Positions 1-64,000 of a stretch of 64,000 nucleotides of DNA are shown here, one piece after another. Where the stretch lies: assembly GCA_973895155.1 (NCBI GenBank), contig OZ316897.1, positions 23,349,455 to 23,413,454 on the forward strand, in the 5' to 3' direction. The notes beneath the pieces are model-generated. The model was not told where the DNA came from, ran no database searches, and saw only the letters and a program-made list of their open reading frames with translations. Numbering within the stretch: the first letter of the stretch is position 1; each line of letters starts with the position of its first letter. This DNA comes from Marsupella aquatica. Taxonomy: Eukaryota > Plantae > Marchantiophyta. The position numbers were made by a program, and so were the translations under genes.

Positions 1-1
1 T

Positions 2-14864: not shown

Positions 14865-14910
14865 TACCTATGCTTCCGTTCTAACTTCATATCTCACGGC
14901 TTAAGAAATG

Positions 14911-14929: not shown

Positions 14930-14933
14930 AAAA

Positions 14934-37817: not shown

Positions 37818-37886
37818 TACCTACGCTTCCGTTCTAACTTCATATCTCACGGCTTAAGAAATGCCCCCTCCATCTAGCGCCAAAAA

Positions 37887-40800
37887 TGTGGTGCGTCCCA
37901 TGGCTCCCTAAACCCAAGAAACCCCCCAGCTCAAGCCGATTCCCGCAGGTTTCGTGCTTGGCGAGGCCATTTCCGCGGCTTAGCGGCATGGGACGCTGCT
38001 AACCTTCTACTACTACTATTAACATTTTACACACATATACTGGACAGATCCTTCATCGGGTCATGAGATACGTAGCCGGCCTAATATAGGCCTTCCCCTG
38101 TCTTCCCCTGTCTTCCCCTCCGTCTTGTTAGGTATGTTTGGATTCCGCCGCCGGAATGATCCCCAATAGGCTTGGTTAAGCCGCTAAGACCTCTCTCAGC
38201 TCGACACATCCAACTCTCACTCCCCTGCTTACTTTCCTTCCTTCTGTTGATGTGGGCACTCTTCACACAAGTTAATGCGACACACAAATAGCAAAATGAC
38301 TCATTCTGACTGAGTCATACCATGCACTTGCCATACAAACAGTACATCTCATACACAAGTTCTGCGAACTAAGCCGTGAGGCCAACTCTATTCAGCTCTT
38401 AGGCATGAGGAAACATGAATATACACAAGGGTCACTGTATGACTAACCGAGAGCTTCTCGTACTACTTGATCCCAGCCCGGCTGGTGCAAACTAAAAACT
38501 TGCTAAAGAAGAGGCCCTGAGCTCCCCGCTGCCCAGGTACTTATCCTGGTAGTGGATCCGCCATTCTTTGCATCGTAAGCCTAATCTACTTAACAGTAAT
38601 CTACTTGCCCGAATCTACCTATGTACAGCAAGGCAGGAGCACAAGTGTTGCTCCTACCAGTGGGACCGCAATCCCACTAAGCTAAGTGTCAGGGCCGCTC
38701 CTGGTTCTGATCCTAATCCTAAACGTGGAGATCCGCGCCCGCCCTGCCCACTCACGCCTCCTCCCTCCACGTCCGCCCTCCCTAAAAGGAACGGCGCCCT
38801 TGCACCGTCACGACACCGGTGGTGGATCCTTAATGGACGCCCCCAATGCTTCCTCCTCAGCCACTGCCGTAGGTTCATTCTCTGACAGATTACCTGCCCT
38901 TGACTGAGTCAACTCTCCATCGGCCTGACTGGGTCCACCTTCGGCTTCAGCCTCGACACCGGCCTCGGCAATACCCACGGCTTCGGCCTCAGCCACTCCC
39001 ACGGCTTCGGCTTCAGCCACTCCCTCGGCTTCGGCCTCCCCTTCCCCTAGGGTAGTTGGATCCTTAGCCGTGACCCTGTCTGGGGTCGGTGCTGGGTCTA
39101 CCTCCTTGATCACCACGGCCTGTGAAGTCGTATTACTCCTTGACCCTAAAGGTTTCCGCTTCTTCTTCGTTGGTGGCTCGGCAGCTGGTCCCTTCCCCTT
39201 CCCACTTACTTCCGGCACTGGTGCAGTTGGCGCGGCTTGTCCTTCGGCAATTACCACCCCTGGTAACTGGTTTGTCCCAACGGGAGATGGACCTGCTGCA
39301 GCTAAGCATTTAAATACTGCGGCTTGTTTCTTCAGCCGCTCTGTTTGGTTGTCGGCCCGCCGCTGTAGGTTCTCCATCTTCCTCGTGATTTCCTCCAACT
39401 CCTCTTGGGTTTCATCTAGGTCCTTACGTGCCCCCTCCAGCTCGTTTTTGGCCTCCTCCTGCTCCCTGTGGGCTTCCTCCAATTCCTTCTTCAAGGTAGC
39501 CCTCTCCTCCTGGGTTGCTCTTAGCTCCTTGTCGAGCTCTGCAATGATGACAGACTCCATCTGGTTCATCTTGGCGTAAGTCTGTTCGAGCATCTCGTCC
39601 TTCTCCCTTAGGTCGGCCTTGAAGCTGGCCGTCAAGGACGCAAGCTCCTGCTGCAGCGCCATAATCCCTTGATAGGATTTCCCTAACTCGACCTCCTTCT
39701 GCTCAAGGGCTCCGCGGATTTTCTCGAGCTCCCCTTTCAACGCCCATTCCTTTCTTTGGGTCTCCGCCATGGCCCGGCTGTTGGCTGTTATGTGGGCCTC
39801 CTCTGTATTCTTCAGCTCTTGCTTCCACTTCTCCCTCTCTTTGATCGTGTCGGCCAACTCTCCCTGCGTCTGAGTTAGTTTATCCTTGATATTCTGATTA
39901 TCAGCCTACGCGGTGTCCAACTGCCCCTGCATGATGTTCAGCTCATGTCGTTTAATCCGCAGTTCATCTTGGGCTTTCTTGGCCGCCCTTAGATCTTCAA
40001 TCTCGGCTTCCATCCTCCTAAGCCGCCGAATGACCTCGTCCTTCTTGCTTCTCTCTAAAGCCACCGCTTCTTCTAATTGGTGCTTCTCCAACTGCTCCCT
40101 ATGGAAAAAGGGTCCTACCTCCAACTCCTCTCCAAAGATGCCGAGCGCAAGTTCCCCACACATCTCACCATACTCCATGGCTCTATTCTTAGCGTAGGTG
40201 GAGTAAGTAGAAGTGATCGGCATCGCCCATCGTGGCCTCTGCTCCCAAGCCGTCCTGCGGATCTCTTCAATCGTGGCTAGAGGTTTGCTTCCTTTTTCGG
40301 CTAGCCGCCTGATGTCCTCCGGCCAATCTCCTCCTGGTAAATCCTTTTCCTTAGCCAGGGCGGCCTCTTCCTCCTGCTTGATTCGCTCCTGAAATTCCTG
40401 CACCGTCTGTTTTATGCCGTCGAAGCTCGGGGGAGCAACATCTGGTGGGGGAGACTCAGGGCTACTCTGCTGGTTGGGGTCCCCTCGCACTACCCTTGGA
40501 AGTGTGGGGACAAACCCGCCACAGGTCCTTACTCCTGGAACGTGATGGTCCGACCCATAGCCGGAATTATCATGGCTGCAGTCCTCCACTGCCTCCTCTA
40601 CCTCTTGGACGTCCGGCTTCTCCCTCTCCTCTTCGTCGGTAGGAGCTTCAGGCAATTCTGCCTCAGATTCGGAGCTTGAGGTTCCCACGTACATTCGAAC
40701 ACCTGGCTTGGATTCCGGCCTGATTCTCTCCTTGTCTCTAGCAAAGGGGTTTTCTCTTGTGAGCCGGTGTAGGCCTACCTCTGTAGTAGTGTCCTGCATT

Positions 40801-42550
40801 GTTGCCATTGCCGTTGTTGTTGCCGATGCCGATTTCTTTTCTTTCTCCAGTAGTTTCAGCAGACTCTGCATGCCTGGTTGCTGCATCGGCAAGTCTTCCT
40901 TCCTGGGCCTAAACACCTGCTCGATCGTAGGACTAACAGGTGGTTGAGGCTTCTCAGCCAACGGCCTCGGCGTTGGAGCTTCCTCGGGTGCCCTTACCTG
41001 CAGGGGAAGTACCGGGGCAAAAGTCTGACCTCTGGCATACCGGCACAACAGCGGCATGTGATAGCCAAGCCGCGACACGCTCCCCATGCCGATTACCTGC
41101 TGCTCCTCCTTTAAGATCTTCTTCAATTGGTTGAGGAGGTACCCGTTGTAGTCCCGGCTTGGGTCTGGCCTTTCTGCCAGATAGACCTGTGCCTTGCCGA
41201 TCTCTGCCCTCGGCAAGTTACAATGCATGGTCACCCGCAAGAAGTCGATCATCTCTCCTATGTGCGGGTTGGTGCAGGTGTTCCGGAAGAAGCCATTCTT
41301 CGTTGATGGTCCGGGGAACGACCGGAACTCCTTGTTAGCTAGGCAGGGTCTTCCTAGTATCAACTTTGGTCTTATTGCCTATCGGCAAGCCAAACACTTC
41401 GGCAATTACCTTGGGAGTAAGATAGAAATCCTTCCCATATATCCTCGTGCAATTGGTCTCGGGTTCCCATGACCCCACGAATTCTAATAGGTCTGACTCC
41501 GGTACCTCCGGCTTCAGCCATGGTAATCTTACAAAGGCCTCCAAGCCGGATCCGACCATGAAGCCTTGGTACTTCTTGGTCTGCATGGCCGTAAAGCATG
41601 CATCCTCCTCCCGTGCAAAATGTAGTTGCACCTCCACCGGTAGGGTTGCCGCCCAGCCCTTCCAGGTGTCATCCCTGGTTGGAATGGCCTTGATGGGATC
41701 GACCTCCTCCTCTTCGGCTTCTCCCTGCCTCCTGCTCTGCTGCTCGGCTGGCCTCTTTGGTGCCGCCGACCTCGTTCTTTTTGTCGGGGTGGCTTCATCG
41801 TTGACGGCCCCCTTCCTCTTCATCTCTGCTGCCATGGAGGTTTCTCCTAGCACCGTTGCCTGGGTCCACCTTTCCGTGCTACCCTTTAATTCCCAGTGTA
41901 TGTCGTTGCAGTTCTTGATGGCCTCTCGGATGCCGACGACGCTGTCTTTGCAAAACAGAAGATCATCGAGTTGATTGGAAGTAGGCGTCCACAGGAACTC
42001 GTCCTTGATGAGTTCGCCTCCTAAGAAAGCCGTCTTCTGCAGCTCCCACAATCGAGCGAGCTCCTGCCGTTCTCGAGCTGCCCTTTCTGACTCCTCGTCC
42101 TCGTAAGTCTTGATGTACTCAGTTGCCCGTTCGAACAGGCATCCCCAGAAATGTGCCGCTTGATTGACGTTGCTCATACCCTCCTTAGGTCGATCGTCGG
42201 TATCTACTCTCTCCCCGAGTGCTTGCCTAAGCAGCTGACAGTAGTTGGCCTCCCGTAGTCGTCTGCCTAGTTCGTGCTCGCAAATGAGCCACCATCTCCT
42301 GCAAGCGCTCCTTACCCCTCTCCTCTGCCGGTCCTTCTTCCCGTTGATCCTTCCTAGCCGCCGACGCTTAACGCGCCCTAACCCTAATCAGGTTTTCACC
42401 CTCAGCCTTACCTCCGGCCTCTGCCCGGGTTCCATGGTTGCCCCTAATTGTTTATATTTTCCTTGTTTTGTCCCTATACTAAGGTGTTCCTAGGGTGCCT
42501 TCCTGCTTTACCCACTTAACCGGCCGAGTGATTCCTGTCTAGGCATCACA
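37887..42550 (-). repeat. A2 5' LTR (4664 bp)
   Basis: Adjacent to the PBS and TSD; TG...CA termini. Confidence 0.95.
38808..42435 (-). pseudogene. LTR-encoded ORF (A2 5' LTR), two stops and a 4-bp insertion
   Basis: Stops at 42388-42390 and 39906-39908, insertion near 41336-41340; otherwise matches the consensus. Confidence 0.85.
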
Positions 42551-46068: not shown

Positions 46069-46537
46069 CGAGTTTGAAGTACACACTCCATGGGTCAGCA
46101 TTCGGGATCGCTTGCCCGAACCTGAAAGTTTGTCAGACCGAGCTTATCAGATTGAAGCCTTAGAAGAGGCACGGCTACTAGCATCTCGACACGCCGTAAA
46201 CCAGCAAGCAACTTCTAAGAAGCAGCATGACAAAGGACTACAGAAGGTCAATGTCGTGACAGGCGACCTGGTCCTTCTGTATGATAGTAGGTACATGCAG
46301 TTTCCAGGGAAGCTTCATACCCATTGGTTAGGGCCCTTCCTAGTCAATCAGATCTACCCTAACGGATCTTTGGAGCTTGCGACGTACGCCGGTGATTTAC
46401 TCCCCACGCGAGTCAGTTACAAGCGTGTAAAGAAGTACCACCATCAAGACGACGACGCCGAAAGTGATGTTCGCGAGGACGCTTCACAGTTAAGCAGGGA
46501 GCTATGTGATGCCGCCAGTACGGCGAGTAATGAGTAA
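46069..46537 (+). pseudogene. Integrase C-terminal fragment of family B
   Basis: ALEEARL...GDLVLLYDSRY..FPGKLHTHWLGPF...VREDASQLSRELCDA, homologous to the family A pol end. Confidence 0.9.
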
Positions 46538-49500
46538 TTCAGTCTAAACCGTGCTTAGCACGCACGTTAGGGGTATCTTAGGCCGCTATTATTAGCATAA
46601 CGATAGTATTTAGGTAACCATTATGAGTAGGAAATCATTAGTCAATAAGGGGAATTCATGTTCGGACTGGCGGCGTGTCGCCATTCACACGCCCGGGTTG
46701 CGAGCATGGAGGGGCCCCTCCCTCGAGTCCGTATAACAAACTTAGGGAAGCGGCCACTGACACGCGCTGACTTAGACCGGCAGAGTGGCCGGTACACTAC
46801 AAGCGTGAACGGTTCAGCCTATAAGCAACGAGGAGACGTCGGGTGATCGACGAGCCCTCAAGGTATAAAAAGGGGGCTGACCCTTTGTAGTGCACCAGTC
46901 CATCAGTCCACACGCCAGCTTCAACCCCAGCCCTCTCGTTCTCTCGTAGTCGCCACTGCTATCTCCTCTGAATGTCGCACATGATCCTCTCCATTTTGGC
47001 CATTCGATTCTGGACGCAGTTCCTATCTGCCGGAAGACACTTGGCCGACTCATTGAAACACGCCAACCCGCGCCGATACAAAATCAAACGCGAGTATGAG
47101 AGAGCCATCCGCCTAGCAGGACAACACCACTATATCCTTAACTTTGACTACCCGTCTCAGAGCGAGCTTAACCGACCAGCAGAGGTATCTGGGTACTTCT
47201 TCAACGGAGACAAATATATCAGTTTTTGGGAAGCATTGCTTCGGCTTCCGGACGAGGTCTTCAATATCCCGGGTATGATCGACTTGCAACGGCATCACTT
47301 TGACCACATCCCTGCTCAGGTTCGGGCTATCATCAACAGCGAGTCCAACACTACCCGTTCGACAAGGCCGTCTGCACTTGCTTCGGAGAACTTCTACCAG
47401 CACCCGTAGAGCTTCATGGGGACTAGACCCTCAACCGCCGGCGCCGGCCCAGTCGACCCCATACCCGTACCCGCACCAACGCAGACTCAGGCTCAGCTTC
47501 AGTCTCAGCCTCAGCCTAGCCAACCCACACTGCCGATCGCCCCGCTAGTACAAGTACGCTCTGTCATCAACGCTGTGGACCTTAGCGACGACGACGAGGC
47601 TACCCCACCCTTGCTTAGGCGGCCCAGAGGAGCAAACACTCAAGGGGCGAACACTACATTGTCCCCTCCCCATGTCCGGACCCAAGGAGCGGCTCCAGCA
47701 GACAACACGGTGACCGTGGCCACCCCGAGCCCAATACTAATGGCGGTAGCACTACCTATGGCCGATCGAGAGGATGGGGAGGTGTCACCCTCCCCGAGCC
47801 AGTCACGGGGGAAGAAGAGGAAGGAACCCACTGCTGCATCCGGGTTACCAATGGCCACGGTAGCTGCGGCCAAGGTGACAATGCACCGCATGGGGGAAAA
47901 CATGCATAAAAACATCCTCCATCCCAAGCATGCGGTGTACCTAAAAACTCAGGGATTCGAGCACCTTGCCTCTCTCCCCTGGAACACTTGCAGGTACTAC
48001 GGGGAGGACATGAAGGAATTCATCAAGAATTATGATGACGCACATCAACATACTCGGCTGCGGGGAAGGAATATGTCCCTTACAGAAGAACGGCTCAAGA
48101 TGATCTTTGGGTTACCCGAAGGTGACCACCGAGTTGAATCACGGGCTCCCGGGGGCAAGGGAGCCAAGTACCAATCCTCGAGTTTTCCCTCCGAGGGATC
48201 AATGGACAACGGGTTCATGATGAGGACCTGCCTCATCCCCGAGATAGCTAAGCGACTGGAGTTCCAAAGGTACGCCCTCCACATGATGGAACCCCGTGGG
48301 GAGATCTCCGCTGCCCAGATTATCCAGGTCGAGAACTATCAACCTAGGAAGTGGGCGTCGTACTTCGCTAAGAAATTCCATGAAGAGATGGAGCGGCGAA
48401 GAAAGACGCTATACATTGGCGGGAAGGCGTATTTCGTTAGCCACATCGAGATCATTCTTGAGTGGTACGCTCGGTTTGATCGACAAACCCTTCCCCGTGT
48501 CAACGTAACAAAGCTGGTCCCAGCTAGGTGGGTTTTCCCGGCCTTGGAGAGACAGCCCCAACCCGAGGCCCAAAGTCCAGCGGCCACGCAGGCTTCACCC
48601 ACCCCACCTCCACAAGTAGCTGTAGCCGTGGCCACGGAGGTACCGGATGGGTCGGTAATCGCAACTGTAGATGCGATCAACCAGGCCGGGCCAAGTACAG
48701 AAGTCGGGACAGCCGAGGCCTTACTCAAGCCCGGGTCTCCCAAAGACCCACCGGTGGCTATTTCGGAGGACCGGACATTGTTGGAGGAGGACACTCCAAC
48801 CCCTTCCAACACTACGTCCCCAGGGCTGGATGTCACTGCCCTGGCCCCCGCGCGTGTTGACGTCTGCCCGTGCCCAACTCTGGACAGGCACAACCTGGAC
48901 CACCCGGAACTCTTCATACCGGGTACATTTCTGAACGGGCTTCTGGGAGATTTCTCTCATCAAATTGCCCGGGATATCGGGGAGTTCATGGCCCGGAAGG
49001 TAGCCTGTTTCTTCAATCAGGAGTTGGTTGCCGCAGTAAAGGCAGGTCGGGCCCAGTCAGAGGCCCTTCAGAGGATAGAGCGGTACCGGGTGGAGTCCGT
49101 ATACTTAAAGAACAAAGTTGTGGCTCAAGAGGCTGAGCTTCTGCAACTACGACCCAAAGTTGCAGCCACCGATGAGTTGTTAGCAAAGGCGCACACCCAT
49201 ACCGCCCTAGCCGAACAGGCCAAAGCTGGGAACGAGGCCGAGATTGCACGACTCCGGAACCAGATTGACAGTTTGAAGAATCAAACTGTCATCTGGCAGA
49301 AAGACCTGGAGGAGGCCAAAGAACGGGCCCAGCGGGACACTGCGGAGATAGCCACGCTACAGGCCAAAGTAGCGCGGCTCCAAACTGAAGCCGAGAAGCA
49401 AGACCAGTTGGCGGGCAAGCTGACGAGCGACGCCCAATAGCTGGAGGAGGCATGCCAGGAGGCAGCGGAGGAGACGGATGCGCAAAGCGAGAGAACAAAT

Positions 49501-50500
49501 CTCTGCTAGACCAGGTCCAACTCCTCAAGGCGGACAACGACAGACTTTGTAAGCAGCGGGATGGCCGCTCCCACTCGGGCGGCTTTGGCAAGCAAGCCAG
49601 GCATTAGCGGCGGAGTAGGAATAGTATAGGGTTAGGAATAGCTAAATCAGGGTATGGGGACAGGAACCTGCCCTAGTTAGAGCAGCACCGCCATGCTATC
49701 CAGCCTGCGTAGGTTAGGATCTTCTAATAAGACACAACTGTTTTTCGGCCTGACAGTCAGATTAGTTAGGACCTAAGTCAGCGAATCTTCGGGCGGGAGG
49801 ACACTCCGTTCCTCGGCCCTTAGTATTTGGTGCACCCCTCGGTAGAGGCAGGGGGTTTTAGTCTTAGTATTGGACGTCCACGGTATGTGCGAGGAGTCCC
49901 GACCTCTGGGAGTGAAAGAGTACCAAGGGGAGGGTGTAAGACTAAGCTCGTTGGGCGAGTGCGGAGCCGGGCTCCGTTGTAGTGTACACCCTCGGCCTCG
50001 GACCTGTTCACTCCAGAGCATTCGGGTCAACTAAGTGTACTCGTATGTCTCTTATGGAGTAAAATCCCTTCCCGTTATTTCCTTCATGTAAATCAAGATT
50101 TTATGCTTGTGCGTATGTATGTGTGTGAATCTCGTGTATAGGTGCCAACGCTTGGCCGAACGCACTACCCAAGTAGTGCACGGGGTGCATCTTGCGTGTA
50201 CGTGGTTGCGACCCCGGGTTGAGCACCCATATCATCAAAATCTGGATCGAAGGCGGACAATACGAAGGCTTAGAAGCCCTTAAACCGGGGTCGATCCTGC
50301 TATCGATTGAGGTACGTTCCGGCGGTGGAACACAAATCATACCTAGGAGGTGTCCGTATATGACGATAGGCGCACTTAGCGCTATTTTACGTAAGTTGGG
50401 TGCATTCCGTGCCTCCCTCCCTGCCCGAACCCTCATTTTGACAAAGGATGTGCCTGTTTAAGCCGAAGCCCGAAGTAAGGCCAAGGCTGATGACGTGACA
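46505..50500 (+). repeat. Family B LTR (3996 bp)
   Basis: TGTGATGCC directly after PPT AAGCAGGGAGCTA; ends CA at the TSD; homologous to 21985-25827. Confidence 0.9.
46972..49607 (+). pseudogene. LTR-encoded ORF of family B (B2), about 870 codons, two TAG stops and a late frameshift
   Basis: In-frame ORFs 46972..47409 and 47416..49440. TATAAAA at 46864-46870. The central domain aligns with the family A LTR ORF; C-terminal coiled coil. Confidence 0.85.
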
Positions 50501-52299
50501 ATTGGGTAGACATTTCTCGCTCAGCTGTTTGTAGTAGCATTCAATGCTGTCCGGATTTGAGGATTGGCTGCCTTGGATGTGCTCGGGGAGATTGCTCGGA
50601 TGTTCAATTGTATCCTTGAATAAAGTTATGGAGATTGGTGAAATTGGTTGGCAATATCATTAGGCGTTGAACGTTTGGTGGGATGGAATCGCTTATGTGG
50701 GAAATGGACTAATTTGCAATCCAAATCTCATGCCAATTTTTGACAGAAAATTTACAGAGATCTGTGTATAATTTTGTAAGGAGACCCCTCCACATCTAAT
50801 TCTCACTTCTAAAGGAAAAAATTGAATGTAAGGAGAAACCTCCACATCTAATTTTGGGTCATTGTAGCGTGCAAGGAAACAGTATAAAATTTCCTCGCAC
50901 GGGATCATTTTCTCCTTGGAATACCCAAAATTTGGCACAAAAACAACCTCGCTAGCATAAAGGACTCTCGCTAGCCTAAAAGGAACCTTCTATTCCACCT
51001 ATTTATTTAACTCCCGTTGGGTTTAAAAAGCAATCCCGACTATGCATTGGTACATATTACGTATTCCCCGGACACAAACGGTCATCGACGGCACCATAAT
51101 ACAATATATAATTCCAACGTACATCAGGCCAGCGAAGTTGCTAGCCATAACTCTGCCCATCATTCTCGCACAAAATACTCCGTGCGGTCATGACCCACAC
51201 AAAAAGCACTCATTAGAAAGCATGGGTGTAAACGATTGCAGCAACAGCACTACACCGGATCATATCACGACAGAATCCAATGTCCCCTTCCTCATGAGTG
51301 AAGTGTGAAATGCGAAACCATTTCAGAGGATCCAAAGCTCCCAAAATGCACTATATGTCATTCGGACCTCTCGACTCATCTCCATTCCTAACAGTGTTCT
51401 CATTATTTGACTTTCATCGTCTCCTCACTCTTTTGCGATCGTCTTCGCATCGCAAGGTAACTTCAATCGAGCTTGTGTTGTCATATTTGCAGGCGAGGAG
51501 GGGATCTGGTGTTCTTGGGTGTGTCGCATTCTCGCAAAGTTTTTGTCGCACAAGGAGATGTAAGTTGGATACCGGGAGACCTCTTCACAGCAAGTAGCAT
51601 TATTGTTAATGAGAAAGTCTGGTTTTCCCAGTTCTATTTTCCTTCTCGTAGTTTTGCGCATTTTGACTCGATGAGCTTGGATGTTTTGAAGGTGACTGTT
51701 TCTATTTGGTAAACACATGTTGAGAAAGTAATCTGATACACAACAGCGTTTGTTACAGACAGAAATGGCAAAGGACGATGACTCTTCCGCTCCAAAACCC
51801 AAATGGGTTCTAGAGGTCCGCCGCTACAATGTCGAAACTGACAGCCCAGTGGACTCGCCACCAAGCTCTCCTCCGGCAAGGAAGAGTGTACCCCCTCTGC
51901 TCAAGACTGGATCATCATCCAGTCGGGTCCCGCCTATTGTATGTGCTTCAACTCAGCGACCTGCACCGCCAAAGGAAACAACTTCAAACGTTGTTTCCAG
52001 AGCACCAATGTTTTTCTCGCACAAACGTATCCGTTTCTAAGATAGTTTCAGAGAAGCGGAAGAGAGAGGAGGAGGAGTCTTACTAGAGGGACATTGACAT
52101 ACACAACTACTGGACATCCGACATCCTAGCTTTGTCTGATTATGATACGGATTCGGACACAGATTCAGACGCCTACAAGGTAGCATCTCCATGAATAGTA
52201 CCCTAGACGACAATCACTCCGCGTTTTGAACCCCCGTAGTTTTACAGTTAATCTCTGTCAAGTCCGTGACCTTACAATGAAATGATTGGTAGGACACGG

Positions 52300-53256
52300 T
52301 GTGGTGCGTCCCATGGCTCCCTGAACCCAAGAAACCCCCTGCACAAGCCGATTCCCACAGGTTTTGCTCTTGGCGAGGCCGGTTTCGCGACTTAGCAACA
52401 TGGGACGCTGCTAACTTCGACTAACATTTTACACACATATACTGGACAGATCCTTCATCGGGTCATGAGATGTGTAGCCGGCCTCTTCTATGCCTTCCAT
52501 TGTCCTCCTCTTCTGGTCTCCCTTTAGGTATGTTTGGATTCCGCCGCCGGAATGATCCCCAATTGGTTTGGTTAAGCCGCTAAGACCTCTCTCAGCTCGA
52601 CACATCCAACTCTTACTACCTTGCTTACTCCCTTCTTGGTTGATGTGGGCAATCTTCAAACAAGTTAATGCAACACACAAATACCAAAATGACTCCTTCT
52701 GACTAAGTTATACCATGCACTTGCCATACAAACAGTACTTCTCATACACAAGATCTGCGAACTAAGCTGTGAGGCCAACTCTATTCATCTCTTAGGTATG
52801 AGGAAACATGAATATACACACGGGTCACAGCATAACTAACCGAGAGCTTTTTTAACCACTTGATCCTAGCCCTGCTGGTGCACTAAAAACTTGCTAAGGA
52901 AGAAGGCCCTGAACCCCCCTGCTGCCCAGGTACTTATCTTGGCAGTGGATCCGCCCAATTCCTTGCAGCATAAGCCTAATCTAACCTGACTGTAATCTAC
53001 CTATGTATAGCGAGGCAGGAGCACAAGTGTTGCTCTTACCAGTGGATCCGCAATCCCACTAAGCTAAGTGTCAGGGCTGCCTCCCGGTCCTGATCCTAAT
53101 TCTAAACTTGGAGATCTCAGCCCGCCCTTCCCACTCACACCTCCTCCCTCCACGTCCGCCCTCCTTAAAAGGAGCGGCCCTCCACCACCGTCATGGTAGT
53201 GGTGGCTGATACTCAATGGACGCCCCCAATACTTCCTCCGCAGCCACTACCGTAGG
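52300..53256 (-). mobile_element. Older, diverged family A-like LTR (3' end), interrupted by A3
   Basis: Starts TGTGGTGCGTCCCATGG and is colinear with 4043-5030 but with many substitutions and indels. No PBS beside it; predicted TSD CACGG. Confidence 0.88.
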
Positions 53257-56200
53257 TGTGATGCCTAGACAGGAATCACTCGGCCGGTTAAGTGGGTAAA
53301 GCAGGAAGGCACCCTAGGAACACCTTAGTATAGGGACAAAACAAGGAAAATATAAACAATTAGGGACAACCATGGAACCCGGCCAGAGGCCGGAGGTAAG
53401 GCTGAGGGTGAAAACCCGATTAGGGTTAGGGCGCGTTAAGCGTCGGCGGCTAGGAAGGATCAACGGGAAGAAGGACCGGCAGAGGAGAGGGGTAAGGAGC
53501 GCTTGCAGGAGATGGTGGCTCATTTGCGAGCACGAACTAGGCAGACGACTACGGGAGGCCAACTACTGTCAGCTGCTTAGGCAAGCACTCGGGGAGAGAA
53601 TAGATACCGACGATCGACCTAAGGAGGGTATGAGCAACGTCAATCAAGCGGCACATTTCTGGGGATGCCTGTTCGAACGGGCAACTGAGTACATCAAGAC
53701 TTACGAGGACGAGGAGTCAGAAAGGGCAGCTCGAGAACGGCAGGAGCTCGCTCGATTGTGGGAGCTGCAGAAGACGGCTTTCTTAGGAGGCGAACTCATC
53801 AAGGACGAGTTCCTGTGGACGCCTACTTCCAATCAACTCGACGATCTTTTGTTTTGCAAAGACAGCGTCGTCGGCATCCGAGAGGCCATCAAGAACTGCA
53901 ACGACATACACTGGGAATTAAAGGGTAGCACGGAAAGGTGGACCCAGGCAACGGTGCTAGGAGAAACCTCCACGGCAGCAGAGATGAAGAGGAAGGGGGC
54001 CGTCAACGATGAAGCCACCCCGGCAAAAAGAACGAGGTCGGCGGCACCAAAGAGGCCAGCCGAGCAGCAGAGCAGGAGGCAGGGAGAAGCCGAAGAGGAG
54101 GAGGTCGATCCCATCAAGGCCATTCCAACCAGGGATGACACCTGGAAGGGCTGGGCGGCAACCCTACCGGTGGAGGTGCAACTACATTTTGCACGGGAGG
54201 AGGATGCATGCTTTACGGCCATGCAGACCAAGAAGTACCAAGGCTTCATGGCCGGATCCGGCTTGGAGGCCTTTGTAAGATTACCATGGCTGAAGCCGGA
54301 GGTACCGGAGTCAGACCTATTAGAATTCATGGGGTCATGGGAACCCGAGACCAATTGCACGAGGATATATGGGAAGGATTTCTATCTTACTCCCAAGGTA
54401 ATTGCCGAAGTGTTTGGCTTGCCGATAGGCAATAAGACCAAAGTTGATACCAGGAAGACCTTGCCTGACAAGGAGTTCCGGTCGTTCCCCGGGCCATCAA
54501 CGAAGAATGGCTTCTTCCGGAACACTTGCACCAACCCGCACATAGGAGAGATGATCGACTTCTTGCGGGTGACCATGCATTGTAACTTGCCGAGGGCAGA
54601 GATCGGCAAGGCACAGGTCTATCTGGCAGAAAGGCCAGACCCAAGCCGGGACTACAACGGGTACCTCCTCAACCAATTGAAGAAGATCTTAAAGGAGGAG
54701 CAGCAGGTAATCGGCATGGGGAGCGTGTCGCGGCTTGGCTATCACATGCCGCTGTTGTGCCGGTATGCCAGAGGTCAGACTTTTGCCCCGGTACTTCCCC
54801 TGCAGGTAAGGGCACCCGAGGAAGCTCCAACGCCGAGGCCGTTGGCTGAGAAGCCTCAACCACCTGTTAGTCCTACGATCGAGCAGGTGTTTAGGCCCAG
54901 GAAGGAAGACTTGCCGATGCAGCAACCAGGCATGCAGAGTCTGCTGAAACTACTGGAGAAAGAAAAGAAATTGGCATCGGCAACAACAACGGCAACGGCA
55001 ACAATGCAGGACACTACTACAGAGGTAGGCCTACACCGGCTCACAAGAGAAAACCCCTTTGCTGGAGACAAGGAGAGAATCAGGCCGGAATCCAAGCCAG
55101 GTGTTCGAATGTACGTGGGAACCTCAAGCTCCAAATCTGAGGCAGAATTGCCTGAAGCTCCTACCGACGAAGAGGAGAGGGAGAAGCCGGACGTCCAAGA
55201 GGTAGAGGAGGCAGTGGAGGACTGCAGCCATGATAATTCCGGCTATGGGTCGGACCATCACGTTCCAGGAGTAAGGACCTGTGGCCGGTTTGTCCCCACA
55301 CTTCCAAGGGTAGTGCGAGGGGACCCCAACCAGCAGAGTAGCCCTGAGTCTCCCCCACCAGATGTTGCTCCCCCGAGCTTCGACGGCATAAAACAGACGG
55401 TGCAGGAATTTCAGGAGCGAATCAAGCAGGAGGAGGAGGCCGCCCTGGCTAAGGAAAAGGATTTACCAGGAGGAGATTGGCCGGAGGACATCAGGCGGCT
55501 AGCCGAAAAAGGAAGCAAACCTCTAGCCACGATTGAAGAGATCCGCAGGACGGCTTGGGAGCAGAGGCCACGATGGGCGATGCCGATCACTTCTACTTAC
55601 TCCACCTACGCTAAGAATAGAGCCATGGAGTATGGTGAGATGTGTGGGGAACTTGCGCTCGGCATCTTTGGAGAGGAGTTGGAGGTAGGACCCTTTTTCC
55701 ATAGGGAGCAGTTGGAGAAGCACCAATTAGAAGAAGCGGTGGCTTTAGAGAGAAGCAAGAAGGACGAGGTCATTCGGCGGCTTAGGAGGATGGAAGCCGA
55801 GATTGAAGATCTAAGGGCGGCCAAGAAAGCCCAAGATGAACTGCGGATTAAACGACATGAGCTGAACATCATGCAGGGGCAGTTGGACACCGCGCAGGCT
55901 GATAATCAGAATATCAAGGATAAACTGACTCAGACGCAGGAAGAGTTGGCCGACACGATCAAAGAGAGGGAGAAGTGGAAGCAAGAGCTGAAGAATACAG
56001 AGGAGGCCCACATAACAGCCAACAGCCGGGCCATGGCGGAGACCCAAAGAAAGGAATGGGCGTTGAAAGGGGAGCTCGAGAAAATCCGCGGAGCCCTTGA
56101 GCAGAAGGAGGTCGAGTTAGGGAAATCCTATCAAGGGATTATGGCGCTGTAGCAGGAGCTTGCGTCCCTGACGGCCAGCTTCAAGGCCGACCTAAGGGAG

Positions 56201-57892
56201 AAGGACGAGATGCTCGAACAGACTTACGCCAAGATGAACCAGATGGAGTCTGTCATCATTGCAGAGCTCGACAAGGAGCTAAGAGCAACCCAGGAGGAGA
56301 GGGCTACCTTGAAGAAGGAATTGGAGGAAGCCCACAGGGAGCAGGAGGAGGCCAAAAATGAGCTGGAGGGGGCACGTAAGGACCTGGATGAAACCCAAGA
56401 GGAGTTGGAGGAAATCACGAGGAAGATGGAGAACCTACAGCGGCGGGCCGACAACCAAACAGAGCGGCTGAAGAAACAAGCCGCAGTATTTAAATGCTTA
56501 GCTGCAGCAGGTCCATCTCCCGTTGGGACAAACCAGTTACCAGGGGTGGTAATTGCCGAAGGACAAGCCGCGCCACCTGCACCAGTGCCGGAAGTAAGTG
56601 GGAAGGGGAAGGGACCAGCTGCCGAGCCACCAACGAAGAAGAAGCGGAAACCTTTAGGGTCAAGGAGTAATACGACTTCACAGGCCGTGGTGATCAAGGA
56701 GCTAGACCCAGCACCGACCCCAGACAGGGTCACGGCTAGGGATCCAACTACCCTAGGGGAAGGGGAGGCCGAAGCCGAGGGAGTGGCTGAGGCCGAAGCC
56801 GTGGGTATTGCCGAGGCCGGTGTCGAGGCTGAAGCCGAAGGTGGACCCAGTCAGGCCGATGGAGAGTTGACTCAGTCAAGGGCAGGTAATCTGTCAGAGA
56901 ATGAACCTACGGCAGTGGCTGAGGAGGAAGCGTTGGGGGCGTCCATTAAGGATCCACCACCGGTGTCGTGACGGTGCAAGGGCGCCGTTCCTTTTAGGGA
57001 GGGCGGACGTGGAGGGAGGAGGCGTGAGTGGGCAGGGCGGGCGCGGATCTCCACGTTTAGGATTAGGATCAGAACCAGGAGCGGCCCTGACACTTAGCTT
57101 AGTGGGATTGCGGTCCCACTGGTAGGAGCAACACTTGTGCTCCTGCCTTGCTGTACATAGGTAGATTCGGGCAAGTAGATTACTGTTAAGTAGATTAGGC
57201 TTACGATGCAAAGAATGGCGGATCCACTACCAGGATAAGTACCTGGGCAGCGGGGAGCTCAAGGCCTCTTCTTTAGCAAGTTTTTAGTTTGCACCAGCCG
57301 GGCTGGGATCAAGTAGTACGAGAAGCTCTCGGTTAGTCATACAGTGACCCTTGTGTATATTCATGTTTCCTCATGCCTAAGAGCTGAATAGAGTTGGCCT
57401 CACGGCTTAGTTCACAGAACTTGTGTATGAGATGTACTGTTTGTATGGCAAGTGCATGGTATGACTCAGTCAGAATGAGTCATTTTGCTATTTGTGTGTC
57501 ACATTAACTTGTGTGAAGAGTGCCCACATCAACAGAAGGAAGGAAAGTAAGCAGGGGAGTGAGAGTTGGATGTGTCGAGCTGAGAGAGGTCTTAGCGGCT
57601 TAACCAAGCCTATTGGGGATCATTCCGGCGGCGGAATCCAAACATACCTAACAAGACGGAGGGGAAGACAGGGGAAGACAGGGGAAGGCCTATATTAGGC
57701 CGGCTACGTATCTCATGACCCGATGAAGGATCTGTCCAGTATATGTGTGTAAAATGTTAATAATAGTAGTAGAAGGTTAGCAGCGTCCCATGCCGCTAAG
57801 CCATGAAAACAGCCTCGCCAAGCACGAAACCTGCGGGAATCGGCTTGAGCTGGGGGGTTTCTTGGGTTTAGGGAGCCATGGGACGCACCACA
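53257..57892 (+). repeat. A3 5' LTR (4636 bp)
   Basis: TGTGATGCC...CACCACA followed by the PBS. Confidence 0.95.
53372..56971 (+). pseudogene. LTR-encoded ORF (A3 5' LTR), single CAG>TAG stop
   Basis: 926 aa open, TAG at 56150-56152, in-frame continuation to 56971; lacks one 24-bp AEAEAVGV repeat. Confidence 0.87.
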
Positions 57893-57896: not shown

Positions 57897-57915
57897 TGGC
57901 GCTAGATGGAGGGGG
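57897..57915 (+). other. Primer binding site of A3 (tRNA-Asn-like)
   Basis: TGGCGCTAGATGGAGGGGG, 4 nt after the LTR. Confidence 0.8.
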
Positions 57916-57961
57916 CATTTCTTAAGCCGTGAGATATGAAGTTAGAACGGAAGCGTAGGTA

Positions 57962-60955
57962 ATGACTGACCTTACGTCGAGGGAAGAAAGAGTGATTCAA
58001 CGGGAGAGAGCTCGACTGCAGCAGCTCGCCGGGTGGCATGATACACAGCGACTGAGAGGGGCAGAAAGAGCTGGTAGCTCCGAAACTGGAAGTGGCGTCG
58101 AAGAAGACATACCAGAAGAAGAGTCGGTAAGGAGAAGTGAGTCTCCAACCGACATGGGGGAACCAGAGGCACGGCCAGACGAGAGGCCAGGGACCAGATT
58201 GAGCCAGCGGTCGCGCATACATTACAAGGCATTTCATGGGAGAGGAGATGAGGATCCGGACGAATGGTTGGATGATTTCGAGGGAACCGCTGCAGCAAAT
58301 GGAGAATCGGCCATCAAGATGCAGATTCTTCCCGGCCTGTTCAAGGGTGAGGCTAGGCCTTGGTACAGAGCATTAGATGTGGAAGATCAAGCCATCTGGG
58401 ATATCTTCAAAACACTCTTTGTTAAGGAGTTTTGACCCATTGGAACTTCAGAACTAGCAGTGCTGAAGTTGGGACAACTTCGGTTCAAGGAGAACAAATC
58501 CTTCAGGAAGTTCTTGCAACGCTTTCAGAAACTGGTAAGACGTACAAAGACCAATGCATCTGAAGGTATGCAACTTCAATGGTTGGTGAATGCTTTGCCA
58601 CAGAAGATGAGTTTTGCAATTAGGAAGGAGAACCCGGAGACTTTAGCCGAAGCAATTAAGGATATTCAATTATACATTAATGCAGATATCACAAGCCGGA
58701 AGAAACAGCTTAAGTCTGAGAGTTCCTCATCAGAGGAGGGATCACCCCATAAGAAAAAAGATAAGAAGAAGAAACATTCCAAGAAGTCTAGAAGTGATAA
58801 GTCAAGCTCGGATAGTGGGAGTAGCAAGAGTGAGTCATCTTCTAGTTCTGAAGAAGAAAAAACTAGGAAAAGGAAGGGCAGAAGGAGAGGGAAGACGAAA
58901 GTCAAGATGGAGGCTAAGCCACCAGATAACATCGTAGCCCTTACCGAGCAACTTAAGGCTATCATTGCAGAGGTAAAACCAAAGAAGAAGGTAGTACAGG
59001 AGGATAGCTCTGTATGGTGTGCCTTATGTTATAAAACCGGACACCATAAAGATGCGTGTCCTAAGCTTAATACTAATCATGTTCGGCATGTGGCCGAGAT
59101 CAGACCATGTCAGGGAGAAGTAGAGTACTTTTTGGGAGATGCCGTTGATAGTGTTTTCGGCATCAGTGAGACTGGAGCACGAGACCTATCCAACAGACCT
59201 GCATCTCTGTGGTCAGGGTTAAGGAACAATCCAGGAGAGATGTATCCTCGGATTATTCAGAACCCGTCAGTACCTCCTAGGCCGAATGTGCAAAGATTTG
59301 CGGCGTGCTATAATTGTGGTCAACCTGGCCATTTTGCTAGAGAATGCCCGAATGCACGCAAACAGGGTGATGGACAACCAGCTCAGCTATGTATGGGATG
59401 CCGACAGGAAGGTCATATGCTAGGGCAATGTCCTACTTGGTTGGCAGGCCTGGCCGCAAATCATAAGCTTTTGCCGATCAAGATCTTACCGCCAGGTACT
59501 ACCCCCGGAGGAGTTCAAATCAACCACATCAAACTAGGATGGCAAGAGGATGCCGAGGCAGAGTTCGTACCATCTGATGATGAGGCCGAAGCCCTATCAA
59601 CCTTCTCAGAGGAGGATTTAGATCATGATTGCTACCGGGTCTCTACTCGATCTACCAGAAGGAAGGAAAGGTGGGATGGGCTGGCCAAAAATAAAGGGAA
59701 GGTTACGGAGGAAAGGATCGACTCTTCGTCAACATCAACAGAAGGAGAAGGGAGGGCTCCGGCAATACAGGTAAGCCATGAGCCCACCAGTGAAACCAAT
59801 CCTTCACAAGATAGCGACTTCAATCGAGATCATCCTAAGTTGTTCTACCCCTCTGTTACGGCTAGTGTTAAGGAACAACTAAGAGAATTAGAAACCCTGG
59901 AGAATACCGAAGCCATTGCCAAGGATGTAAAACGAGCAAAAGCATTGTTTGCTTCGGAAGACCCAACAGCTGTGGAGACTAGCGTGGCAAAACTGGCCGA
60001 ATCCAAGACGGAAACACCACCAGAAGAGAAGCCGATTGTTCCCTATGACCTGGCTAAAGATGTACTAGAATCTAGAGTCTCGGCAACAGTAGGTCAACTA
60101 TTGAAAAATAGCCCGTACTTCCGGAAGCAATTAAGGAAGGCTATTCTCGGCAAGCCGAGATTACCCAAGGTAGCAACCAGATCCGACGTACTAATGATAG
60201 AAGAAGATCAAGGAGCCCCAGCATTACCATTAATGATTCAAGGAGAATTATTACTAAGGGTACCCATCGATGGAGGATCAGGGGTATGTATTATGATTGA
60301 TTCAACAGCAAAAGGGTGGGGTCTAACACCGGAGATGACTGGAAGAGTGTTGAACATGGCCAATGGATATCAGGTCATTCCGACGGGAGTGTTAACCGGC
60401 ATCAAGACAGAGATAGGAGGTATCTTCTTTAGCATTAACTATGTAGTAATGAAGCCGGTAAATCCTACGTCATTCCGGCTATTGATTGGTAGGCCATGGC
60501 TGTACCTAGCCGAGGTAATAGAAGATTGGGGTAAAAAGCAGTTCACTTTCGGGACCCCCTCTGTCACGGTATCCTGGGACACTAAGGATGACCGTAGGAA
60601 AAGCATAAGGGAAGTAGATGGGTACGACAGTGGACTGGAGTCAGCCGATGAAGTACGTTGGTTAGAATGCCTCACTAACCTAACCGAAGAAGGTGTCTTT
60701 GGACCAGAGGTACCCCCCAGCGGATTATGGCAAGAACCAATGGAAGGTGACTTGGAAGAAGAAGACGAAGAGGTCGAGGACTGCTTTACAATAGAATCCA
60801 CCTTTTTAGCTGCAATTCCGGAGGAAGTAAAGGATGTAGACCAATTGGATGAAACGGCTAAGTGGGGAGCAGTAGCAGGGACAGTGGATTTTCTGCAGGC
60901 GTTGTGGCAGAGCCGACGGGGTCCACAACGCCATCGATCATCGGCAAGGAATTAA
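57962..60955 (+). pseudogene. gag: A3 gag-protease, premature TGA at 58433-58435
   Basis: Three CCHC knuckles, DGGS protease; same stop as A2. Confidence 0.93.
60886..60945 (+). promoter_or_regulatory. Putative -1 frameshift signal: GGATTTT + H-type pseudoknot (A3)
   Basis: Heptamer 60886-60892 is in the correct phase. Stem 60898-60907/60923-60932; loop GCCGA 60912-60916 is complementary to TCGGC 60941-60945. pol is in the -1 frame. Confidence 0.78.
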
Positions 60956-63900
60956 ATACCAAGGGATCGGCATACAAGCCGATTACGAGGGCAGAACAAA
61001 TTGAGGCCCTATTAGAAGCCGAGAGAGCACAGCGGCCTAACTCTCAGGAGCAAGAAGTGGATGAGATGGACAGACACGATCCAGAGCCAAGGCAGGAAGG
61101 GGAGCCGACCACTAATTCAAAACCGAATAGACCGGTAAGGGGACAATCTATGGACACCAAGGAAGGGACCGACTCGGCTAGTCCAGCCGAGATCCCAGTT
61201 TATGGAGGTATGAGATTAGAGAGACTGGAAGCCGAACTGGACCCGAATTTGAAGAAGCAGATTAATATGATCCAAGCACGGCAATATCGGAAGCTCGACT
61301 TAGGAGAGGGAAGAGAACTGAACTTAGGGAGAAACCTAGCACCTGAGCTCGAGAAAGAGATTAGTGACTTATTGATTGAATTTCAGGATGTGTTTGCATG
61401 GAGTCACCAAGATCTAAAGGGAGTAGATCCAACACTAGGGGAACATCGAATTGATCTCATGTTAGGAGCCAAATCATTTCGACAACCAATTCGAAGGATG
61501 AACCCGAAGTATTCCCTGCTGGTCAAAACAGAAATCGACAAACTAGTGGAAGCTGGATTCATCACTCCAGTCCTGCATTCAGACTGGGTGTCTCCAATTG
61601 TGATAGTTCCCAAGAAAGCTGGACCCGATGGTAAACCCAAGATCCGGGTTTGTCAGGATTACAGGAAGCTGAATGAAGCAACATTAAAAGACCATTTTCC
61701 TTTACCGTTTACTGATATGGTACTAGACATGGTAGCCAGTCATGAACTATATTCATTCATGGATGGATACTCTGGTTATAACCAAATCAGGATTCGGCAG
61801 GAAGACCAAATCAAGACGGCCTTCATCACGGAATGGGGGATCTATGTCTTCAATCGTATGCCGTTTGGACTCTGCAACGCACCAGCTATGTTCCAACGAT
61901 TAATGGTGAACATTTTTCATGATTACTTGAGAAAGTTCATGGAAATCTTCATTGATGACTTTGCAGTATTCGGGAAGGCATCGAAACATGCTAAATACCT
62001 CAGGAAAACCTTCATGAGATGTAGAGAGGTGGGTCTCAAGTTACACCCAGATAAATGTTTTTTTGCAGTAACCGAGGGGGTGCTACTAGGTCACAAGGTA
62101 TCAAGGAAGGGCATTGAGATTGACAAAGGTAAGCTAGCAGTATGGCTAGATATCATGCAACCTAAGAACATAAAGGATGTAAGATCCTTCTTGGGATGCA
62201 TTGGTTACTATCGCCGGTTCATCAAGGATTTTGCCAAGCTGGCTTTACCATTAACCAATATGCTCAAGGCAGGAGCAGACTTCGAACCCACACCCGAACG
62301 AGTCACAGCGGTGGTAGAATTGAAGCAGATGTTAGTAGAGGCCCCAGTCATGATAGCACCGGACTGGAACAAAGATTTTCATGTTTTTGTAGATGTCTCG
62401 GGCTTCTGTATTGGCTCAGTACTAAGTCAGTTGGATGAGAAAGGAAGGGACCATCCCATATACTTCGCAAGCCGTCAGCTTGCCGATGCCGAACGGAACT
62501 ACTCTACCATGGAAAGAGAAGCATTAGGAGTCATTTATTCTTGTAAAAAGTTTAGGCATTATTTACTAGGGTACAAGGTAATCTTTCATACTGATCATGA
62601 AAGTTTGAAGTACCTAGTCAATAAGCCGGACCTTACAGGCAGAGTAGCAAGATGGATTTTGCTATTACAGGAGTTTGACTATGAGCTGAGGATCAAGCCG
62701 GGAAAGTTACATGCCAATGCCGACTTCTTTTCAAGGATCACAGGTAAACCTGCCACGGATTGCATCGATGATCGATTCCCCGACGAGGAGATATTCGTTG
62801 TGGAAATAGCTGGTACATGGTACCCTGAGATTTTACAATTTCTCAGCACTTCCAGATTACAGCCAGGATTAAGCCGAGAGCAAGCCGCAGTCTTTGTGCG
62901 GAAGGTCAGACAGTATCAGTGCATTAAAGGCATACTGCACAAGCATGGAATCAACGGCACGATTCAAAGATGTTTGGAAAAGAGAGAGGTAAAACGAGTC
63001 CTACGGGCCATGCATGGAGAGGAGGCTGGAGGACATTTTGCCCCAGTAACCACGTCTAAGAAGATATTAAATGCCGGTTACTGGTGGCCCACCTTGCACA
63101 AAGATGTCTATCAGTTTATCAAACAATGCGATCCTTGTCAACGAGCGGGAGGACCAAGGGCGTCCACCAGGCATCCACTGCACCCTATTCTACCTCTGGC
63201 ACCATTCGAGAAGTGGGGTATTGATTACATTGGACCTCTGAAACCACTGACCCACCCTCGACGGAACAAGTACATAATCCTGGCTACGGATTATGCAACT
63301 AAATGGGTAGAGGCCAGACCAACAACGAAGGATGATGCAATTACTACGGCTAGATTCATGTATGAGCAGATCTTCACCAGGTATGGAGCACCCCTAGAAT
63401 TAGTTAGTGATAGAGGAACCCATTTTTTGAATGATATAATTAGTCGTTTAAATGAGCAGTATTTAGTTAAACATAGGCCTACTACTCCCTACCATCCAAA
63501 GGCAAACGGGTTGACAGAACGAGCAAACGGAATCATAGGAAAGATATTGAACAAGACAGTAGCTCAGAACAAACTCGATTGGGATGATAAATTGTTTGCT
63601 GCTGTTTTTGCTTAAAATCTTGCCTATAAATCCACTACCGGTCATACACCCTTCTTCTTAACCTTTGGACAAGAAGCCCTGGTACCCATGCAACTTGAGA
63701 TACCGACATTTCAAGTTACAATTGAGGAAAGAGCCTCAGCAGAGGAGAGCCTAAAGGAGCGAGAATATAGGTTAGAAGCTTTAGAGGAAGTGAGAATGAT
63801 TTCAGCCGAGAGAGTAGAATATAGACAGAATATCATGAAGCAGCAGTATGATAAAAGGTTAAAAGTAGTTAGTATTCATACCGGTGATCTTGTGCTACTT

Positions 63901-64000
63901 TATGACAATAGGTATAGTAGGTTTCCAGGAAAGCTTTACACTCGCTGGTTAGGACCCTTTAGAGTAACCATGATGTTCCCCAATGGCTCCGTACAATTGG
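60886..64000 (+). pseudogene. pol: A3 pol (RT-RNase H-integrase), premature TAA at 63613-63615
   Basis: 917-aa ORF with all RT, RNase H and integrase core motifs; homology continues in frame to the window end. Confidence 0.95.

Follow-up and report, generated by a model that had tools for sequence, protein, structure and literature searches.

The LTR that spans positions 53257..57892 (+) raises the question of whether a plant retrotransposon can carry a gene of its own between its LTR ends, and what the protein of such a gene might do. The window, that is, the whole 64-kb stretch of Marsupella aquatica DNA that was analysed, was used to answer it.

LTR limits and the three families

Family A was represented in the window by five Ty3/gypsy LTRs of 4668, 4660, 4650, 4664 and 4636 bp, located at 4043-8710(-), 14934-19593(-), 27966-32615(-), 37887-42550(-) and 53257-57892(+), each beginning with TG and ending with CA. 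Element 1 (4043..19593, - strand) was full length at 15.5 kb and was flanked by the TSD CTTGT, while element 2 (27966..42550, - strand; TSD ACAGG) had an internal deletion of about 950 bp. The 4,636-bp LTR at 53257..57892 (+; TG..CA) is the 5' LTR of element 3 and has directly on its 3' side a PBS (57897..57914, +), which we take to be of the tRNA-Asn type. The PBS was identical behind all three 5' LTRs, and the PPT was identical ahead of both 3' LTRs. The LTR limits given in the preliminary description, based on TG/CA ends, PBS, PPT and TSDs, were thus confirmed, with 5-bp TSD pairs round elements 1 and 2. A short true LTR accompanied by a duplicated neighbouring gene was ruled out, because the TSDs flank the full 4.65-kb units.

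In element 3, the gag-protease frame (57959..60955, +) contains a stop after codon 158 that is shared with element 2, and it is overlapped by the RT-RNase H-integrase frame (60862..64000, +). A single RNase H was found in elements 1 and 3, and the pol frame gave no Pfam match to a second RNase H or to a chromodomain. In element 1, the PPT lies within the integrase coding sequence and the stop codon of pol is reached 12 nt into the 3' LTR, so the internal region has no space for an extra gene. Element 3 is inserted within an older family A LTR, the 3' part of which (52299..53256, - strand; 85% identical) retains the last 21 codons and the stop of the LTR gene. The window holds three A elements together with a pair of B LTRs and a single C LTR, clustered and nested.

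The preliminary description had overlooked a homologous LTR ORF in family B of the same window. The 3,996-bp 3' LTR of this family (46505..50500, +) follows an integrase end and a PPT motif, a junction that is the same as in family A, and its ORF homologous to the A gene (46972-49607) is broken. The other B LTR (21999..25827, +) is 5'-truncated, and its homologous ORF (22342-24933) is broken as well. The ORF is missing from family C, whose LTR measures 2.4 kb.

Start of the LTR gene and purifying selection

It had been proposed that the ORF starts 115 nt into the LTR, covers nearly 80% of it and has an intact consensus of 1,207 codons. A frame of 1,207 codons does run from the ATG at LTR +116, and all five LTRs carry it with 1-3 lesions each, differing between the copies, as had been claimed. 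The coding part, however, begins at the second ATG (53630; LTR +374) and comprises 1,121 codons, or 72% of the LTR, because those homologues whose N-terminus is complete start immediately ahead of a conserved FW motif, which corresponds to this ATG, and because the variants upstream of it are mostly non-synonymous. Among the variants listed from public sequencing runs, 20 of 24 after the second ATG were synonymous, compared with 2 of 16 before it (Fisher p = 1.3e-5). A gene start at LTR +116 was rejected accordingly, with 14 of the 16 listed upstream variants non-synonymous against 4 of 24 downstream. The first 86 codons of the longer frame (53372..53629, +), where a 1-nt deletion polymorphism and two listed stops (codons 16 and 59) also lie, behave as a non-coding leader, judging from the variant pattern.

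The copy in the 5' LTR of element 1 (15855..19220, - strand) is open from ATG to stop over 1,121 codons. The element 3 copy (53630..56971, +) has one private stop at 56150-56152, where another reading made up 96-100% of the summed depth in all four public runs. Upstream, the only TATAAA of the LTR (53351..53356, +; LTR +95) is likely to be the promoter of the LTR gene, and the TGTA/U-rich zone 3' of the stop (57150..57450, +) probably holds its 3'-end signals; five of the ten TGTA words of the LTR fall at +3896 to +4186. A TATA word at LTR +4435 was rejected as a conserved gag-pol promoter, since it is missing from the older A copy.

The two family B copies differed at 175, 133 and 366 first, second and third codon positions, and their dN/dS was 0.17-0.30 over 800 codons, well under 1 and not near it; shifted frames gave 1.2-2.4. 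The value was 0.07-0.16 in the core, and the acidic tail was under weak selection (0.41-0.63). Moreover, 25 of 56 non-stop variants among the family A copies were synonymous (p 0.0002-0.019, depending on the transition weight). The LTR gene is under purifying selection in two families and is located between the LTR ends; an LTR-borne accessory gene, as originally suggested, is supported by dN/dS in B and by the synonymous excess in A. A gene that was functional in ancestors and is now merely copied with the LTR would also account for the stops or frameshifts present in every A copy but one and in the two B copies, and for the ORF-less 2.4-kb LTR of family C. But the lesions are private, the stop in the 53257..57892 copy being outvoted in the public runs, and gag-pol is broken as often as the LTR gene. 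Furthermore, variants segregating among present subfamilies are mostly synonymous, and the indels of the divergent patch are all multiples of three. Such a decaying passenger is consequently considered quite improbable.

Protein features, core fold and candidate role

The conserved N-terminal helical domain (53630..53959, +) had no clear fold match; its model (pLDDT 79.9) reached a best Z of 6.3 against ferritin-like bundles, which is treated as a common helical arrangement. The long coiled coil (approximately 55740..56490, +) is a proline-free charged stretch with weak coiled-coil Pfam matches. Basic patches and an acidic tail were present, and no membrane helix was detected (best 19-residue hydropathy mean 0.98), in agreement with the features read earlier.

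The core domain (54110..54790, +) was modelled by AlphaFold2 with pLDDT 84.7 and pTM 0.82. The top Foldseek match was VANC21 bound to DNA (9LNJ; probability 0.75), with the next at no more than 0.04 among the matches listed. Comparison with VANC21 by VIA gave Z 8.8 and rmsd 4.0 over 210 of 227 residues, and a PDB structure scan found VANC21 as the only one of 48,161 chains at Z of at least 2 (Z 8.6; rmsd 4.0-4.1, about 210 residues), values to be read with the aligner's warning that Z below about 13 may reflect a common helical arrangement. Identity to VANC21 was 8-9%, with a Foldseek E of 0.17 and TM of 0.45. ESM features of the A core and of the B core alike pointed to DUF1985 (0.88) and PMD (0.87), as leads only. 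No Pfam score was obtained for PF03078, PF10536, PF20167 or PF09331 with the window cores and the 19 first homologues at E 1, and in a further scan PF10536 and PF09331 were not among the 25 of 61 families listed. Pfam matches of the whole protein were coiled-coil noise only; profile searches of PDB sequences missed VANC21 and returned nothing relevant, and BFVD viral structures gave no match at E 0.001. The resemblance to Athila ORF1 and PMD-like proteins that had been noted by eye is supported on the PMD side by the VANC21 structure match, whereas the proposed comparison with PF03078, PF10536 and PF20167 scored nothing. The core is predicted to belong with the DUF1985/PMD fold.

Word-indexed searches for homologues of the LTR protein gave 0 of 1,976 candidates, 0 of 7,991 longer candidates and, in a third search, 9 matches. 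All named homologues came from the liverwort Calypogeia fissa. Searches of viral and metagenome contigs, by protein as well as by DNA pattern, turned up no related locus.

The DUF1985 domain of VANC21 is reported to resemble PMD, and VANC21 to bind motifs of its own family and remove methylation. PMD-C proteins are described as countering Polycomb silencing and resembling DUF1985, and MAIN/MAIL1 as using the same fold in host silencing. A shared fold by itself shows no function. As VANC21 was the sole PDB match, anti-silencing is favoured over integration targeting, the two roles guessed at first. We give roughly even chances to the reading that the protein, encoded by 1,121 selected codons and with a predicted VANC21/DUF1985/PMD-type core, recognises a DNA motif specific to the family that encodes it and protects this family from host silencing. 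The LTR would then be a cassette of TATA box, leader, gene and U-rich 3'-end zone, so that the protein would be made from each of the two LTRs of an element as well as from solo LTRs. Nuclear entry would depend on the basic patches and multimerisation on the coiled coil, as has also been predicted in VANC and Athila proteins, and the protein would work in trans on LTRs throughout the family. Counting against anti-silencing are the 8-9% identity, the Foldseek E and TM values, the moderate Z, the missing Pfam score, the failure of profile searches to reach VANC21, the absence of evident target arrays, the use of the same fold by MAIN/MAIL1 in silencing, the weak selection on the acidic tail, and a reading frame that is intact in just one of five A copies and in neither B copy.

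It is unlikely that the protein is instead a chromatin tether or a factor of the element's life cycle, one that binds LTR DNA or cDNA and would steer nuclear import or integration with silencing marks unchanged. Such a role would suit a pol frame without a chromodomain match and the clustering and nesting of A elements, B LTRs and the C LTR within 64 kb, and extra ORFs have been suggested to act in the nucleus during the retrotransposition cycle (PMC7264820). However, no structural relative with this role was found, the single fold match being an anti-silencing protein, and the clustering is also expected from selection against insertions elsewhere.

The 3' end of the LTR bears on another possibility. 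Families A, B and C all retain, close to the 3' end of the LTR, a stem-loop or palindrome motif (57616..57650, +) that is followed by a TATA-like word. Changes in the motif preserve G-U pairs on the sense strand across only three independent families, and no Rfam family matched the 3' end of the LTR. Direct regulation of the LTR promoter, either by Tat-like activation of gag-pol or by MAIN/MAIL1-like repression limiting copy number, could use this site. The gene dose grows with each LTR, which would suit feedback control, and PMD proteins are described as acting in silencing too. Nevertheless, the palindrome is also present in the ORF-less family C, and the G-U-preserving changes in these three families would fit either a DNA site or an RNA hairpin; such a regulator seems rather improbable.

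An env-like membrane or movement protein would suit a sense ORF immediately behind pol, the position of env-like ORFs (PMC7264820). This role, hardly credible for a protein without a hydrophobic segment whose fold match is a DNA-binding protein, was rejected for lack of a transmembrane segment.

Relation to known elements and implications

VANC21 of VANDAL21, an Arabidopsis Mutator-like DNA transposon (PDB 9LNJ/9LNK; PMC5735166), shares with the LTR protein the predicted core fold, a coiled coil and the status of a transposon-encoded accessory protein. Its gene lies in a VANDAL DNA transposon, whereas the LTR gene lies inside a gypsy LTR and, judging from the named homologues, outside angiosperms. 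The target sites of VANC proteins form tandem arrays outside coding sequence. In LTR A, the only repeat within non-coding sequence was a 10-bp unit in 2.8 copies, which the older copy lacks; LTR B held none, and arrays occurred in the ORF-less LTR C.

Family A has the gag-PR-RT-RH-INT order, TG..CA LTRs, PBS, PPT and TSD of Ty3/gypsy elements. The PMD-A ORFs carried by Ogre and further gypsy elements (PMC6317226, PMC5418596) are gypsy-borne accessory genes of the PMD/DUF1985-type fold, the fold predicted for the LTR protein. For Ogre, a lineage with a second RNase H, they are listed as ORFs on the 3' side in reverse orientation, with 431 hits, or on the 5' side in forward orientation, with 3 hits, and the descriptions come from angiosperms; the family A ORF is in sense orientation inside both LTRs, with no second RNase H and no PF10536 match. 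The additional archaeal-type RNase H that marks Tat/Ogre/Retand was not found by Pfam in the pol frames of elements 1 and 3. The 5-bp TSD and the lack of an extra RNase H and of a chromodomain are Athila-like, and the 3' extra ORF of Athila (PF03078, 'env-like') is also in sense, directly behind pol and with a coiled coil. Athila elements have a PBS for tRNA-Asp or tRNA-Asn; that of family A is tentatively assigned to tRNA-Asn. The Athila ORF, however, lies between pol and the PPT, while in family A the PPT sits inside integrase and precedes the ORF, and the family A protein had no PF03078 match and no membrane segment. The long ORF-bearing region between pol and the 3' LTR of Athila has no counterpart, since pol ends 12 nt into the LTR. 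Phygy/Selgy elements are short, with 4-bp TSDs and no extra ORF, unlike the 15.5-kb element with 5-bp TSDs found here. Retrosat2, FRetro3 and RIRE3 of rice (PMC3485330) also combine LTRs > 3 kb with an extra ORF; in the part of that source available, their ORF0 is upstream of gag-pol, once per element, and no LTR gene is indicated. The LTR gene may have originated as a sense extra ORF behind pol that was absorbed into the LTR when plus-strand priming shifted to a purine tract inside the integrase end.

Accessory genes in or overlapping the LTR are found in animal retroviruses, namely MMTV sag and HIV nef, which are much shorter than the LTR gene and encode unrelated proteins. In plant LTR elements, extra ORFs are reviewed as sitting in the internal region, with function unknown (PMC7264820, PMC6317226). 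PMD has been described only from angiosperms (PMC8616336), and its origin, from gypsy elements or host genes, has been called fully open (PMC5418596). PMD ORFs of gypsy elements have been reported before, though from the internal region and from angiosperms; no LTR-borne case was found in the literature.

A selected gene of kilobase scale inside the LTR is a different architecture, with two doses per element and persistence in solo LTRs. In repeat annotation, such genes are masked or end up classed with those of the host, and the 'unnamed' Calypogeia proteins may be an instance of this. The fold link connects the LTR gene to the only well-studied transposon anti-silencing system, making its function testable, and a liverwort gypsy relative bears directly on whether PMD arose from gypsy elements or host genes. 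Tentatively, a bryophyte-level gypsy lineage might have turned its LTR into a self-contained anti-silencing gene, so that each LTR, even a solo one, would encode a protein of the VANC/PMD fold by which LTRs of the same family escape silencing. Recombination that deletes the element would then leave its counter-defence gene behind, and the fold would be older than angiosperms, having been retrotransposon-borne before the host MAIN/MAIL and VANC proteins.

LTR limits and start of the gene in family A

Self-comparison of the window revealed five copies of a 4.64–4.67-kb repeat, bounding three Ty3/gypsy elements, here called family A. Element 1 (4043-19593, minus strand) and element 2 (27966-42550, minus strand) were flanked by the TSDs CTTGT and ACAGG, respectively, and element 3 continued beyond the window edge. 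All five LTRs began with TG and ended with CA; the PBS was identical after all three 5' LTRs, and so was the purine tract (PPT) before both 3' LTRs. In the internal region, gag-protease was followed by an overlapping RT-RNase H-integrase frame, and Pfam found no chromodomain or second RNase H there. The integrase frame crossed the PPT and stopped 12 nt inside the 3' LTR. Together with the termini, TSDs, PBS and PPT, this indicates that the LTR limits of the preliminary description were right and that the long sense ORF lies inside the LTR. The LTR-borne architecture is well supported as real. In elements 2 (37344-37346, minus strand) and 3 (58433-58435, plus strand), but not in element 1, gag was interrupted by a stop following codon 158, which is either a lesion inherited by both or a site of read-through.

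A 1,207-codon frame from the ATG at LTR position +116, covering nearly 80% of the LTR and with lesions private to each copy, had been proposed. The frame and the private lesions were borne out, but the gene begins at the second ATG (53630, LTR +374), and it is therefore 1,121 codons long, or 72% of the LTR. In homologues with a full N-terminus, the protein starts a few residues ahead of an FW motif, and this motif aligns with the second ATG. Contigs from four public runs were also compared with 53330-53930, where 40 of 47 variant sites were listed. Among these 40, synonymous variants made up 2 of 16 upstream of ATG 53630 and 20 of 24 downstream (Fisher p = 1.3e-5, which is optimistic because the sites are partly linked in subfamilies), and third-position variants 2 of 16 and 18 of 24, respectively. 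From this ATG, the 5' LTR copy of element 1 was open to the stop, and the other four copies broke after 794, 762, 280 and 840 codons. The stop in the element 3 copy (53257..57892, plus strand) was private, as 96–100% of the summed depth differed there in all four runs.

Over codons 1-940, family A carried 25 synonymous, 31 non-synonymous and 4 stop variants, with synonymous variants in excess of expectation (p 0.0002-0.019). The divergence within LTR pairs was about 0.6-0.75%, except in the 3' LTR of element 1, where an 800-bp patch (about 4950-5700) diverged by about 15% from its counterparts in the other four, likely through gene conversion from a divergent subfamily. Over the acidic tail, this patch gave a dN/dS of only 0.41-0.63, and its four indels were all multiples of three, hence in-frame.

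Related LTRs in families B and C

In the window, the core of the encoded protein matched 23183-23803 (E 2e-11) and 47926-48474 (E 1e-16) at 25-27% identity. The second match lies in a family B LTR, B2 (46505-50500, plus strand; 3,996 bp, TG..CA), which is preceded by an integrase end 51% identical to that of family A, and whose PPT and LTR start are almost the same. The first sits in a 5'-truncated copy, B1 (21999..25827, plus strand). The family B ORF has about 870 codons and the layout of family A: N-terminal domain, linker, core, linker and coiled coil. The LTR DNA of the two families can no longer be aligned; since the ORF is homologous in both, the LTR-borne gene predates their split.

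For B1 versus B2, dN/dS over 800 codons was 0.17, 0.26 and 0.30 at transition weights of 1, 4 and 8, and 0.07-0.16 in the core, with 175/133/366 differences at the three codon positions. The two shifted frames gave 1.2-2.4. The LTR gene is therefore under purifying selection. The non-coding 3' parts of these LTRs differed by 9% and the synonymous sites of the ORF by about 60%; the low 3' divergence may reflect either strong constraint or LTR-end exchange between subfamilies.

A family C solo LTR (1286-3692, minus strand; 2,407 bp, TSD AGTAT) is a third relative, with terminal words and a cis motif in common with A and B. It held no long ORF and is therefore a natural control; tandem arrays of 16-33-bp units occupy 3032-3324. 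A stem-loop motif (57616-57650, plus strand; 50310-50345; 25637-25672; 52552 and 1618, minus strand) was kept in all three families, 180-330 nt before the 3' end of the LTR. One of its 10 predicted pairs showed two-sided change, two retained G-U on the sense strand, and no Rfam match was obtained.

Regarding the neighbouring DNA, a copia-type gag fragment (45110-45946, minus strand) splits the integrase remnant of B2, and 21-bp units form an AT-rich array (21637-21961) immediately upstream of B1. The retroelements are embedded in another element, probably a DNA transposon, whose copies (19575-21416, 42494-43690, 26001-27590 and 1-4042) carry DUF7869 ORFs (Pfam E 5e-44, 3e-40). Short plant telomere-type repeats occur on opposite strands at 43676-43703 and 44562-44592, about 900 bp apart.

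Predicted fold and possible function

A search of 1.84 billion representatives returned 20 matches at E <= 0.001, 19 of them to the N-terminal domain or core. Among 10 homologues checked, the three named were all from Calypogeia fissa, a leafy liverwort, as were all nine matches of a profile search. The window itself probably stems from a liverwort or another non-seed plant. The N-terminal domain had no clear structural match.

The core had been likened to the plant-mobile-domain (PMD) group. Pfam did not recognise it, and the support comes from the predicted structure (AlphaFold2, 27 sequences; pLDDT 84.7, pTM 0.82). The best PDB match in Foldseek was VANC21, the anti-silencing protein of the Arabidopsis DNA transposon VANDAL21, in complex with its target DNA (E 0.17, probability 0.75, TM 0.45). 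In VIA-align, VANC21 was the sole chain of 89 with Z >= 2 (Z 8.8, rmsd 4.0, 210 residues aligned), and an independent scan, covering 48,161 chains, again matched it alone (Z 8.6, rmsd 4.1, 209 residues). Against this stand the identity of 8-9%, a Z value that is moderate given how rich the domain is in helices, and a query that is itself a predicted model. Language-model features, alike for the A and B cores, gave DUF1985 (0.88) and PMD (0.87, on 14% of the PMD cluster) as leads.

According to passages in PMC5735166, the binding sites of VANC21 are short motifs of its own family, and the protein removes DNA methylation. PMD-C proteins, which resemble its DUF1985 domain, are described in part of bioRxiv 2024.09.27.615353 as opposing Polycomb silencing, and coiled-coil multimerisation is predicted for VANC and Athila proteins in a section of PMC13547354. 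These activities and coiled coils favour an anti-silencing role, and by analogy there is an even chance that the LTR-gene protein would be a family-specific factor of this type. Neither LTR A nor LTR B yielded a clear target array, and host PMD proteins also act in silencing (passages in PMC5418596 and PMC8616336).

Each LTR may form an expression cassette, with TATAAA before the ATG (279 nt in A, about 107 nt in B; a single TATAAA per 4.6 kb is insignificant by itself) and TGTA words clustered 3' of the stop. Two anatomies appear about equally probable. In one, U3 would contain the gene and a second promoter would sit close to the 3' end of the LTR; in the other, a giant R region would contain the gene and gag-pol would be expressed via read-through and splicing. 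The summed contig depth of the LTR was about 3.5 times that of the internal region in two runs; such depth gives no copy number, and the excess would fit many solo LTRs.

Comparison with known accessory genes

MMTV sag and HIV nef are known LTR-associated genes. In plants, the text of REXdb sorts extra ORFs by position (5' or 3') and orientation (forward or reverse), assigns PMD to Ogre and PF03078 to Athila, and gives LTRs of up to about 5 kb (PMC6317226); that text yielded no gene inside a plant LTR, and its element table or sequence file could hold one. Extra ORFs were placed in the internal region in a passage of a review (PMC7264820). Retrosat2 also has long LTRs, but its ORF0 lies upstream of gag-pol (part of PMC3485330). 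Portions of the bryophyte papers PMC12885004, PMC10508981 and PMC7466625 contained no LTR ORF, and full-text searches of openly accessible articles, as distinct from Repbase, GyDB and subscription journals, listed no account of a gene carried inside a plant LTR. The predicted link to VANC21 goes beyond the earlier likening to the PMD group. PMD/VANC-type accessory genes of gypsy elements are of a known kind, and the gene described here would represent this kind relocated into the LTR, outside angiosperms.
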